From Octopus vulgaris (Eukaryota): a stretch of 64,000 nucleotides of DNA. Position 1 is the stretch's first letter. Each line of letters begins with the position of its first letter. Both the position numbers and the translations under genes were made by a program. The stretch lies in contig OX597831.1 in assembly GCA_951406725.2 (NCBI GenBank), positions 40,548,001 to 40,612,000 of the forward strand, given 5' to 3'. The notes under the pieces were generated by a model. The model was given only the letters and a program-made list of their open reading frames with translations, did no database searches and was not told where the DNA came from. Shown one piece after another: positions 862 through 52,725 of the stretch.

Positions 862-1068
862 AGTTAATCCAAACAAGAAAACAAAAACAAAAAAACAACA
901 ACGCAAGGACGTGGAACAAATAAAGTATTATTGGACGCTCAGGAAAAAAGGGAAGAAGGAGGGTTTGACATTTTGAGCAGAGCTCTTCGTCGGAAACATA
1001 GGAGAAGGAAAGATCCCGAAAGGGAAGACAGGGGAAAACAATCGCTAGTGATACAGACGAGGTCACAT
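862..1068 (-). mobile_element. Short (TA)n-flanked non-autonomous element carrying a decayed hammerhead motif (Penelope-like LTR / retrozyme-like)
   Basis: Unique segment between TA runs that contains the HHR relic at 963-997. Its left end (aagttaa...caacaacgc...aaagtatta) recurs in truncated form at about 1919-1992. Confidence 0.5.
963..997 (-). ncRNA. Decayed minimal type I hammerhead ribozyme
   Basis: Minus strand reads gttt-CCGACGA-A-GAGC-tct-GCTC-AAAATGTC-aaac. Stem I gttt/aaac and stem II GAGC/GCTC are intact. The core differs from CTGACGA...GAAACGTC by three transitions. Confidence 0.6.
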
Positions 1069-1671
1069 ATATATACATTTGATGCTCAAGCTACGATCAA
1101 TTTTATGCCTTGAATGTATTGAAGGTGTAGTCTAGACATGTTTTAATAACACGCTTTGTGTCACCAAACAATCTTCAAGCTCTGAGAACACGGTCTATAC
1201 AATTTACGAATCACGACGCTAAAACAAGAGAAATCACAACAAAAAAGAGAAAAAAATAAGATGAAGGTGGATGCAGAATGTGAAAGGGTAAAAAAAAAAT
1301 GCAAAATGAAAAGAAAAAAGAAAATTATGTCCCCTTTGACCCTCAAGCCACAATAAAGTTAGATGTTGTGGAATGAATCAACGGAGAGGGGTCAAAAATC
1401 TGCAATACAGCTACTCAGCCCGGGGAGGGTAGTGTCCTCCAATTCTCCATAAAAAAATTGTCTTTATTCTTTTATTCTTTTATTCTTTCATTCTTTTATT
1501 CTTTTATTCTTTTATTCTTTCATACTTTTATTCTTTTATTCTTTTATTCTTTCATTCTTTCATACTTTTATTCTTTTATTCTTTCATTCTTTCTTTCTTT
1601 CATTCTTTTACCCTTTCATTCTTTCATTTTTATTCTTGTATTCTTTTATTGTCTTATTCATGTACTTGTTT

Positions 1672-2203
1672 CAGTTATTTGACTGCGACCATGCTGGAGC
1701 ACCGGCTTAAAGGGTGTTAGTCGAAGAAATCGACGCCATGACTTATTCTTCGTAAGCTTAGTACTTATTCTATCGACCTCTTTTGCTGAATTGCTGAGTT
1801 ACGTTGACATAAACACACAGGCATCGGTTGCCAAGCGATGGCGGTGGGGAGCGGACAAACACAGTGACACACGCATGCACACGTGCACACATATACACAC
1901 ACATATAAACACATAGATAGTTAAATAAAAGAAAGCGGAAAAAGAACAAAAGAAAAAACAACAACGCGACGACGTAGTACATGCAAAGTATTATACATAT
2001 ATATATATATATATATATATATATAGATAGATAGATAGATAGATAGATAGATAGATAGATAGATAGATAGATAGATAGATAGATATATGACAGACTTCTT
2101 CCAGTTTCCGTCTACCAAATCCACTCACAAGGTTTTAATCGGCCAGAGTCTGTAGTTGAAAACACTTGCCCAAGGTGCCATGCAGTGGGGCTGAACCCGA
2201 AAC
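1672..2203 (-). mobile_element. tRNA-derived SINE family B, interrupted copy
   Basis: Matches the full copy at 3204-3649 (tail acttgtttcagt...catgctggagcacc; head part ccaaatccactcacaagg...cacttgcccaaggtgcc). Confidence 0.75.
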
Positions 2204-2362
2204 TGAAAGAAGCTCATCGTATATATATATATATATATATATATATATATATATATATATATATATATATATATATATATATATATATATATATATATAT
2301 ATATATATATATATATATATATATATATATATATACATATATATAATATATAAATATACACA

Positions 2363-2510
2363 TGAGGCGCAATGGCCCAGTGGTTAGGGTAGCGGACTCG
2401 CTTAACCAGCCGGGTGGCATCATTTGAAGGCTAAAACAATGCGAAACGCATTGTGACCAGCGATGTGTTGCAACATCTGATAGCCTGGTCAGTCACGGTG
2501 ATCACGGTGA
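2363..2510 (+). mobile_element. tRNA(Arg)-like SINE head fused to a short tail, internally deleted
   Basis: gaggcgcaatggcccagtggttagggtagcggactcgc has a Pol III A-box and a CTCG anticodon-like loop. The same head occurs on the minus strand near 44095-44133. Confidence 0.6.
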
Positions 2511-49858: not shown

Positions 49859-51737
49859 ATATATATATGTATATATGTATATATATATATATATATGTAT
49901 GTATGTATATATATGTATATATATAATGCGAATACAGAAACACACACACACACACACACACGCACATGTACATGGGCAAGATGTAAGATTGTGTGCGTAT
50001 AGACATATGTCTAGTGTAGATGCTTGGGCAGCTGTCTGTCTCTATAGAGAGAACGAAGGAGGGAGAGTGATAAAAGAGAGAAAGAGAGATAGACACCATG
50101 ATTTTTCTTTCATTTACTTGAAACGCGACAATGCCGCAGCTGGCACAGCTATTGATGTTGTTGTCGTTGTTTGTCCTTTTCCTCGAAGCTAACTTGGCCT
50201 TAACATGTGTACATGTATATATATATATATATATATATATATATATACATGTGTGTGTGTGTGTGTGAATGTTTGTATGTATATATGTATGTATATACAT
50301 CGAGAAGCATTGTCTAGAGGCACGATTATTGTAACGACACACGCTATAGAAATTTGAATTTGCAGCCCACACTCTGATAAATACATGTAACTGTCTGGTG
50401 TTTTTGCAAGATGTGCTTTACCAATTACCTTTACGAAAATGCAACCACCCTGCACATATATAAAAACACATATTTATCATATAACTTATGACATCAATTC
50501 TTTATAACAGGAGCACATGACTCATCGTTGGACTAAAGTCATGAGCAAAGTTTATCTCAAAATACTTTGCTCACATTTGTCTCTTAAATGCATTGCTCAT
50601 CATGTGAAACATGGTCGTCAGAGGAGTTGAAGATTATGTTACCCTAAAGATATCATTAAAAGACACTTCATTATATCAAAAGAATGTCGTAGACGTTCTA
50701 AGGATGAACGTAACAAATTTCTTTTAATTTTTCCCACCGTGTTTTCTCATATTTTTATCTTATATTTTTCTGGTGACGAATGAGTGTTGGAAACGTCAAG
50801 CCTCCTTTCTTTTCTTTTTCAAGCTTTAAGCTAATAATACATTTATCTAAACTGACCCTCTGGTGTTGTGTACTTTTTATGTTTATTGTCGAGAATGTTA
50901 GGATTTTCCATTCACGATCGCAAGATAGAGATACTAGCTCCAGGAATGAGCGGCACTTAGTCTTCTTCAGCAAAAAAAAACTTCATTTCACATCGACGCA
51001 CCCAGTCAGTAGAAACCGGTTTGTCCTGCGTCGGAATGGCATTCCGTTTGGTGGCAGTGCAGAAATCTCGGTGAATTATGCGTCATAAAATTGCACGCCT
51101 AGTTAGTGGGCGAAGGGTGGTATCATTTGAAAGCTACAACAATGCGAAGAAGTGCATTGTGATCAGCGGTGTCAGATCGGTACAATGAAACAGCATCTAT
51201 ATGTATATATATATCTGTGCGGTAAAAAGCTTGTTTCCTAATGGATCCCGATTTAGTCCCACTGCGTGCTATCTTGGGAGATTGTCTTCTGTTATAGCCA
51301 CTGATGTGTTTGTGTCTGTGTTGACCCTCACTATCGTTTCAGCACCGGTGTTGGTTTGTTTACGTCTCCGTAACTTAACGATTCCGCAAATGAAGCCGAT
51401 AAAATAATTACCAGATTTAACAAAATATTACTGGAGTCACTTCTGTCGTAAAAGATAAAACACACACACACAAAGTAAAAGACACACACACAAAGTAAAA
51501 GATAAAACACACACACACACACACACACACACACACACACACACACACACATATATATATAAATGTATATGTATATACATATCTATATACATAAATTCAA
51601 CATGTGCGATTCTTTCTTGTCTTGGGATTCACGGTCAAATGGCTGGGTGGAATTGCGGGAAAAATTACACAGATGTGTAGAATGATCCGGTAGTGATGCT
51701 GGGCTTTCTATCATAGCTCCCATGATTACGGAGATAA

Positions 51738-51975
51738 TCTACTATAATAATACTCTTGTGTTTATGAATGAGAAAAGAAGGGATGATAGATGAATAAGGA
51801 AGGATGGGGTGATGTTATACTTGGTAGTGGGATGATGAAAATTGTACGCTGGAAAAACCGAATCAAACAACGTTTCAACTCTGTAGGGATATATGTGTAT
51901 GTAAAAGGTAGATTTCTGAATGATTGTGTGTCTGTGTGCATGGGCGCGCGTGTGTTTGTATGTGTGCGCGTGCAA
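51738..51975 (+). mobile_element. Helitron-like 5' fragment, family of 37203-37519
   Basis: Shares tctactataataatactcttg, gatagatgaataaggaagga and aatcaaaca.cgtttcaactctgt. Confidence 0.65.
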
Positions 51976-52304
51976 TGGAAGTGAGATGGTTCATCTTTGT
52001 TCGCTTAGTATTTGGGTTTATTCTTTGATTTGGTCGAATCTTGGTTGTTTTTTTTTTGTTTTGGGTGGGGGGTCAGTTATTTTTAGCGCTTTGACAAAGA
52101 AAAAGTCATACTAAAATTGCTTTTTAACGTAAGCGTGCCGAAACAAGTCGAATACTTACACAGAGCAGGTTATACAGCCACATCATCCAAACGGACCGGG
52201 TGAATGAAATATATATATATATATATATATATATATATATATATATATATATATAGAGAGAGAGAGAGAGAGAGAGAGAGAGAACAAAGTGTACGTACGC
52301 CGCT

Positions 52305-52725
52305 ATATGTATATAAAATAAAATACAAAATGGGACAAGAACGCAAAACATCCGGACAACTAAGTGATACAAAAAGTACAACAAAGCATCCAGATAGACG
52401 ATACAAAAAAGCAAGGACGTGTCATTCGAAGTCTTTTATCCTCAGTCAAGAACCGGATCATCCTCGCAATTTCGGCTGATTAATCTTGAGATTGCTCCAA
52501 TCTGGCTAGCCCCAAGGAAAAACTAACCTAAGAGCATTAGATTCCTTGGAAAAAGCATCGAATGTATACGAAAACAAGGACAGAAAAAACAGACGATGTT
52601 ACACGAATATAAAAACAACAATACAATAAAAATGAATATACCTGGATGTTGTGTTGTCCATTTTTGTATCACCTAGTTGTCCAGCTGTTTTGCGTTCTTG
52701 TCCCATTTTGTATTTTATTATATAA
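52305..52725 (-). mobile_element. Microsatellite-flanked element with about 80-bp inverted termini and a permuted hammerhead motif
   Basis: About 52312-52393 is inverted at about 52642-52722. Confidence 0.75.
52430..52495 (-). ncRNA. Non-circularly permuted hammerhead motif, second sequence family
   Basis: Minus strand reads GCAAT-C | TCAAGA-ttaatcagcc-GAAATTGC-(14 nt)-TCTTGA-CTGAGGA. Stems I (6 bp) and III (5 bp) are perfect; stem II is poorly defined in this copy. Confidence 0.6.

Follow-up and report, generated by a model that had tools for sequence, protein, structure and literature searches.

We describe a rewired form of the hammerhead ribozyme in retroelement tails of Octopus vulgaris, found in a window of 64,000 nucleotides (nt) of contig OX597831.1 (positions 40,548,001 to 40,612,000 of the forward strand, assembly GCA_951406725.2). 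The window contains 13 hammerhead motifs, named here by their position within it, in segments that are probably the 3' tails of Penelope-like elements (PLEs) of several families; three of these tails (42216, 52430 and the relic 15488) have permuted hammerhead cores, with a predicted fold that also occurs in tails of Naiad PLEs. A preliminary description had missed the oddity of these three, and it is their architecture that is new, the remaining type I motifs and the link to (TA)n tracts being already known. With somewhat less assurance, we favor the wider view that Naiads carry permuted hammerheads, one widespread form of which would place a helical junction between core positions A9 and G10.1 and cut as a monomer, making this the first SGC/CSG class in the genomes of known organisms, from ctenophores to octopus. 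Judged by the predicted fold, the rewired motif is likely an overlooked ribozyme of many Naiads.

In all three motifs the cleavage block comes first, GAAA second and CUGANGA third (S, G, C). For the strand preceding GAAA the best partner is a strand further upstream, X, which opens with G directly 3' of a hairpin, P0; the strand following A9 pairs with a strand, Y, directly 5' of P0; and one of the two long linkers pairs with the other. The features are as follows.

42216-42336, minus strand: rewired hammerhead with intact cores, score 29
42336-42332, 42331-42299 and from 42298, minus strand: Y, the P0 hairpin and X (G10.1) of 42216
42272, 42257 and 42227-42221, minus strand: core of 42216, with the predicted cut after U 42272 (GUU), GAAA from 42257 and CUGAUGA at 42227-42221
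52433-52554, minus strand: rewired hammerhead of a separate family with intact cores, score 25
52445-52439, 52473 and 52490, minus strand: core of 52433, with CUGAGGA at 52445-52439, GAAA from 52473 and the predicted cut after C 52490 (AUC)
15425-15549, plus strand: relic of a rewired hammerhead, 42216 family, its GAAA short of one A, parsed by eye

A descriptor of the rewired order that demanded perfect cores gave exactly two matches in the window, 42216-42336 (29) and 52433-52554 (25), against a maximum score of 15 over 400 window shuffles; shuffling the 42216 and 52430 elements 3000 times each produced 0 matches, and 0/120 motif-enriched viral loci reached a score of at least 16. The relic 15488 is 68% identical to 42216 over 290 nt, with paired changes in stem I and P0. 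These are the only two segments that align across their length, in keeping with the earlier remark that the segments are mostly unrelated.

From 5' to 3', the proposed fold would consist of Y, hairpin P0, X, a linker L1, stem III' with the UH cleavage site, a stem I strand and a short linker, followed by X' with GAAA and stem III, a linker L3, stem I' with CUGANGA, and finally Y'. X would supply G10.1, paired with C11.1, and L1 would pair with L3; A9 would exit into Y', paired with Y, and the G12-A9 pair would be topped by a junction of Y, P0 and stem II. The tail RNA would thus present a stem III hairpin whose loop pairs both upstream (stem II) and downstream (stem I). The predicted cut, after 42272 or 52490, would take place in the monomer and trim the element RNA. 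Minimal type I motifs are thought to need dimers for cutting; the rewired form would cut as a monomer because its stem III is a real helix.

The same arrangement was recognized by eye in the tails of published Naiads, in a survey that covered part of the 54 consensus sequences: nine tails show the Y-P0-X form (Bfor, one Clytia, Amil, Aacu, Anas, Movir-2, Plae, Obim and Ovul) and seven a clean type CSG form (two in the Pristionchus stretch, Nbra-1, -2 and -3, one further nematode and Smim) (PMC8557442). Only two CSG sequences were previously in print. Naiads are described as being without canonical hammerheads, some of them marked HHR_core or HHR_half_core (PMC8557442). The octopus Naiads (Obim, Ovul) prefer (TA)n targets and share their stem I sequence with 42216, and beyond stem I and the core the window copies do not match the motifs of the Naiad_Obim and Naiad_Ovul consensus sequences. 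From the architecture, the shared stem I and the (TA)n association we infer that the window copies are Naiad-derived.

A search pattern built from these motifs led to 120 metagenome loci, 98 of which form one coral-type family resembling the Acropora consensus; the consensus sequences that match come from Acropora corals. The rewired descriptor scored at least 20 in 46 of these 98 loci and in one of the 22 others, L232 (112-215, minus strand), a GC-rich, fully paired rewired hammerhead with entirely different helices on an unrelated metagenome contig, of which 476 bases were examined. Six helices of differing sequence are all paired in 42216, in 52430, in two coral-type subfamilies and in L232, and in every family X starts with G opposite the C that precedes GAAA (C11.1). 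Patterns specific to the 42216 family had no match in viral or metagenome contigs, and the general pattern returned from viral contigs ordinary type II hammerheads and chance matches, with no rewired form. Many ordinary type II hammerheads lie in the viral contigs (L001-L120), some loci having two (L039, L087, L120).

The coral-type family carries the protein order of Naiads, an N-terminal GIY-YIG and a C-terminal reverse transcriptase (RT), whereas the window copies have no linked open reading frame (ORF). An RT match was present in five coral-type loci, on the same strand as the motif in 5/5 and ending 277-466 nt upstream of it. Among seven long homologues scanned, five have an N-terminal GIY-YIG match, most of these matches lying below Pfam's cut-off, and four of the five also have a C-terminal RT match.

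Alignment of 36 of the 43 coral-type copies picked for intact P0 and X motifs (omitting L128, L167, L192, L199, L211, L222 and L227) showed that 94.8% of cells pair, compared with 25-44% in slid controls, with two-sided changes in Y, in stem I, and in stem III and its extension. A classic stem II is possible in 0/73 coral-type copies, a figure biased by a search pattern that barred G after CUGAUGA, and an upstream X of at least 5 bp in 56/73; the published Acropora consensus is likewise without a classic stem II. Only one of 89 members of this family is associated with (TA)n (1/89), so that fold and target preference are separate traits.

Variation within the octopus family is of a similar kind. 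The 42216 stretch, whole or in part, is present in 20 runs (10 studies, four organism labels), and between 878 and 5494 contigs per run were mapped in four runs, which shows the family to be highly repeated, contig numbers not being a copy number. The high copy number claimed earlier for the whole set holds for this family, the one examined. Summed contig depth is highest at the 3' end and falls towards 5', with inverted joints at varied places. One run presumed to be RNA showed none of the listed joints, a result that does not bear on circular RNA. Among the rows listed for four runs, N7 is the only core position that varies; the two partners of one stem I pair show comparable rates of change (47% and 43% in run X1), and the relic 15488 carries both stem I changes together.

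Several observations weigh against this interpretation. No known hammerhead has a gap of more than 1-2 nt between A9 and G10.1 (PMC10085705), and even the pseudoknot hammerhead keeps the A9-G10.1 link (PMC11300833), for which reason the activity of the rewired form stays a prediction, self-cleavage included. The cleavage site of 42216 is GUU. Nested minimum free energy folds of the window motifs, a kind of folding that cannot hold crossing stems, are unremarkable (z -1.1 to -1.7) and unlike the model. In the coral family, two-sided change is absent from P0 and X:X', the two-sided changes that exist are mostly few events between two subfamilies, and the copies were preselected for intact P0 and X motifs; the changes in the 42216 family are unphased, with 28 further rows outside those listed. 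Neither form was seen by eye in the tails of Mley, Chem-1, Chem-2, Movir-1, Skow-1 and Adux. Naiad ancestry of the window copies is not shown by sequence, as they have no PLE protein remnant and are not set apart by a covariance model built on the coral family: on the window its first match is a microsatellite and its second 42206-42325 (E 0.046, only the ends matched), 52430 and 15488 are missed, and L232 is found at E 0.44.

The strongest of the competing explanations, and in our view still an unlikely one, is that the odd motifs are plain type-SGC hammerheads in which Y, P0 and X make up a fold of their own, or an inhibitory one, by which cleavage is turned off. Indeed, for 42216 and L232 a plain type-SGC fold is possible too, its weak stem II being formed from the strand after A9 (4 bp in 42216, two G-C and two G-U; 3 bp in L232); the short link between stems I and II agrees with type SGC, and the nematode and spider Naiads in the by-eye survey carry the ordinary contiguous type-CSG form. 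However, 52430 cannot form a contiguous stem II at 0-2 nt after CUGANGA, nor can 73/73 coral copies, and all of these keep full cores, and the G of X faces C11.1 throughout. We attach slightly less probability to the suggestion that the rewired motif is a conserved structural domain of hammerhead descent that has lost the ability to cut and might, for instance, bind the element's RT. The break between A9 and G10.1 is without precedent and PLE hammerheads are reported to cut poorly in vitro (PMC4209133), but ctenophore, cnidarian, acanthocephalan and mollusc families retain the catalytic core and a UH site while all stems change, and the position that does vary, N7, is the free one. We prefer the reading as a rewired hammerhead that would cut as a monomer.

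The other motifs of the window belong to familiar types. At all 13 sites of the preliminary description hammerhead-like sequence is present, but the cores are intact in only five, seven being decayed and one a half-motif. CUGANGA, GAAA and the UH site are intact in 16217, 25744, 31130, 42216 and 52433 and broken in the remaining eight, with core changes or deletions in 963, 10674, 12875, 23351, 30758 and 41590. Ten of the 13 are ordinary minimal type I hammerheads of the kind found in PLE tails, and 42216, 52430 and 15488 are the three that are not type I. Around the intact cores, stems I to III are present with G10.1-C11.1 and A15.1-U16.1, G10.1 lying upstream in the rewired form. The ordinary motifs, together with two extra relics outside the earlier list, are these.

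16217-16309, minus strand: intact minimal type I hammerhead whose stem III is palindromic, GUA site, score 18
25744-25816, minus strand: intact minimal type I hammerhead within the unit at about 25557-26148, (TA)n on both sides
31130-31186, minus strand: intact type I hammerhead, with a partial inverted copy at 31370-31422
963-997, minus strand: decayed minimal type I, two core changes, within the null range when taken alone
10673-10709, minus strand: decayed minimal type I, by eye
12875-12925, minus strand: decayed type I, core partly deleted, 3' half intact
16025-16040, minus strand: 3' half-motif truncated by a (TA)n tract, weak
23351-23388, minus strand: decayed minimal type I, by eye, weak
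30758-30798, minus strand: decayed type I with 6-nt palindrome, by relaxed descriptor, half-motif and eye
41590-41637, plus strand: decayed type I, CUGAUGA intact and GAAA changed
47995-48043, minus strand: extra type I relic (48009), half-motif and by-eye parse
50767-50800, plus strand: extra type I relic (50790), weak, half-motif and by-eye parse

A first descriptor, which allowed all six hammerhead block orders and required perfect cores, gave four matches at a score of at least 13, every one on the minus strand: 16217-16309, 25744-25816 and 31130-31186, which are type I with a palindromic stem III, and 42216-42277. The corresponding null was a mean of 0.033 per local dinucleotide shuffle (n=300), with four matches in none. 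The intact cores of 52433-52554, minus strand, were added by the second, rewired-order descriptor. When the decayed sites were scored singly with a relaxed descriptor, 963 and 10674 fell inside the null range, no parse was obtained for 12875, 16023, 23351 or 41590, and 30758 was the only relic above the null, with a parse unlike the by-eye one. The assignment of the decayed motifs rests on by-eye parsing and on an excess of exact half-motifs (GAAA, a 6-nt palindrome and UH): four were observed against a null mean of 0.37, a number reached in 0/60 shuffles, and the excess is lost once one mismatch is permitted (seven against 4.5 expected). A hammerhead family is absent from the 150 listed of 413 Rfam matches, which are dominated by microRNA matches to microsatellites.

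The adjacency to (TA)n noted previously is borne out, and it is directional. A (TA)n tract of at least five units lies within 250 nt 3' of 11/13 motifs (background 0.185, binomial p=5e-7), the 13 motifs having been picked with the tracts in view; on the 5' side only 2/13 have such a tract within 250 nt. The proportion is 6/6 for the six best-formed motifs (p=4e-5) and 3/3, within 250 nt, for the rewired copies 42216, 52430 and 15488, and 3/14 for control ends of short interspersed elements (SINEs). In the extra relics 48009 and 50790, (TA)n of at least six units is absent within 1.4 kb on the 3' side. This 3'-side bias agrees with the proposed targeting of (TA)n, a trait on record for PLEs of the Hydra clade and for octopus Naiads (PMC8557442); being common to the Hydra clade and absent from the coral family, it is not diagnostic of Naiad. 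Terminal direct and/or inverted duplications were confirmed in four segments.

About 25557-26148: unit with a 76-nt direct repeat and an inverted end
41980-42890, minus strand: unit with a direct repeat of 79 nt (41980-42058 / 42727-42801), an inverted copy of 91 nt (42108-42195 / 42801-42890) and (TA)n at its 3' end
52304-52732, minus strand: unit with inverted ends of 94 nt, adjoining (TA)n(GA)n
31150-31422: segment with an inverted copy of 58 nt

These four thus show the hallmarks of PLE insertions, a hammerhead near the 3' end together with partial direct or inverted terminal copies. The distance from motif to (TA)n on the 3' side (100-240 nt) likewise agrees with published PLE insertions, and inverted, 5'-truncated PLE copies and tails are among those described (PMC8557442). 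In mechanistic terms, a PLE protein (RT plus GIY-YIG) would nick (TA)n and reverse-transcribe from the RNA 3' end, and early termination and inversion would leave tails of 200-900 bp with direct and inverted ends. Nicking of (TA)n by the RT plus GIY-YIG protein, followed by truncated or partly inverted tails, is established PLE biology.

As previously reported, the segments are without ORF, and a PLE ORF was found in none of them. No PLE protein remnant was detected upstream of the motifs by Pfam (21 read-through frames, seven segments), word search or phmmer, and tblastn of the window with 120 Naiad-like proteins gave no PLE match and one match to a non-PLE RT. The RT plus GIY-YIG partner that had been envisaged was accordingly not found within the window, as expected for short 5'-truncated copies; with no ORF remnant found, truncated copies and non-autonomous families are indistinguishable here. 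The motif types, the 3'-side position of (TA)n and the direct and inverted ends all match published PLE insertions, in support of the suggested PLE origin. The ten ordinary motifs, the (TA)n link and the duplicated ends are published PLE behavior, and the system of the preliminary description is mostly ordinary PLE debris.

Least probable of all is the original proposal, in which (TA)n is expanded by non-autonomous families of retrozyme-like elements with circular RNA intermediates: the segments are without ORF, one family is highly repeated and animal retrozymes are reported to derive from PLE ends (bioRxiv 10.64898/2026.07.22.740005), but a tandem two-ribozyme unit was found in none of the segments, depth falls from 3' to 5' and the inverted joints lie at varying positions, as in truncated copies, and the supposed expansion is unsupported by a non-significant difference in tract length (median 36 vs 22 nt for adjacent tracts, p=0.09, 11 vs 90 tracts).

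The window as a whole is animal DNA with 36% GC and a simple-repeat share of 21%; it also holds SINE-like repeats and two remnants of non-PLE long interspersed elements (LINEs). One LINE remnant, which we take to be RTE-like, occurs in two copies 87% identical (34487-36060 and 61054-61993) and has a weak zf-RVT match. The other is a non-PLE RT remnant at 48713-49770 on the plus strand (tblastn E 1e-11), presumably CR1/L2-like. Two plus-strand frames (6856-7269 and 32256-32597) resemble what we assume to be mariner transposase fragments. An inverted repeat of 79 nt and 98.7% identity (17168-17246 / 17616-17694) flanks an enclosed (TA)n/(ATAG)n tract, and a dispersed repeat (36062-36272, 41877-41917 and 43322-43483; 91% over 162 nt) adjoins (TA)n or (AAT)n; no hammerhead was seen in either.

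In the literature searched, which did not extend to the supplements of PMC10085705 and bioRxiv 10.64898/2026.07.22.740005, no paper came to light that assigns permuted hammerheads to Naiads or to animal genomes. If the rewired form is what we propose, it would account for the apparent lack of a ribozyme in the PLE clade that is most abundant in invertebrates, and the main support for regarding hammerheads as dispensable passengers of PLEs would fall away. Permuted hammerheads, so far a matter of rare metatranscriptome contigs, would become a feature of high-copy DNA in animals, and hammerhead architecture would extend beyond the three-block model. As standard descriptors miss the rewired form, the number of hammerheads in animal genomes is probably underestimated.

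Comparison with known systems places the window copies as follows. Non-LTR (long terminal repeat) retrozymes resemble the segments in being non-coding, hammerhead-bearing and PLE-related, but they are defined by tandem units with a type I hammerhead in each (bioRxiv 10.64898/2026.07.22.740005); none occurs in the window, and we rejected this assignment. In the canonical minimal type I motifs of PLE pseudo-LTRs (PMC4209133) stem III is palindromic, A9 is often followed by one additional base and the copies are mostly single and dispersed, as in ten of the window motifs. Those ten also share (TA)n targets with Hydra-clade PLEs, and the stem III of 31130, with 3 bp past A15.1-U16.1 and a loop of 1 nt, agrees with that of hammerheads in Hydra-clade PLEs (PMC8557442).

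For the rewired form, the closest known systems are the type-SGC and type-CSG hammerheads of Eckert et al. (2023), who found no SGC or CSG RNA in genomes of known organisms and assume CUGANGA to be contiguous with stem II (PMC10085705). The core, the mutually crossing stems I to III and the short link between stems I and II are alike in both; the difference lies in stem II, contiguous with CUGANGA in the type-SGC/CSG form, whereas the rewired form has an upstream stem II strand and two extra helices between A9 and G10.1, and occurs in animal retroelements. The order S, G, C is present in 42216, 52430 and 15488, and a direct stem II after CUGANGA is not. The pseudoknot hammerhead has one contiguous G10.1-C11.1 pair after A9 and another connectivity, yet shows that the core tolerates a helix II from a distant strand (PMC11300833). 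Naiad PLEs differ from the window copies, which are without ORF and match the consensus only in stem I and core; they are alike in the (TA)n preference of the octopus elements, the direct and inverted ends, the by-eye fold of the tail and the sequence of stem I (PMC8557442).

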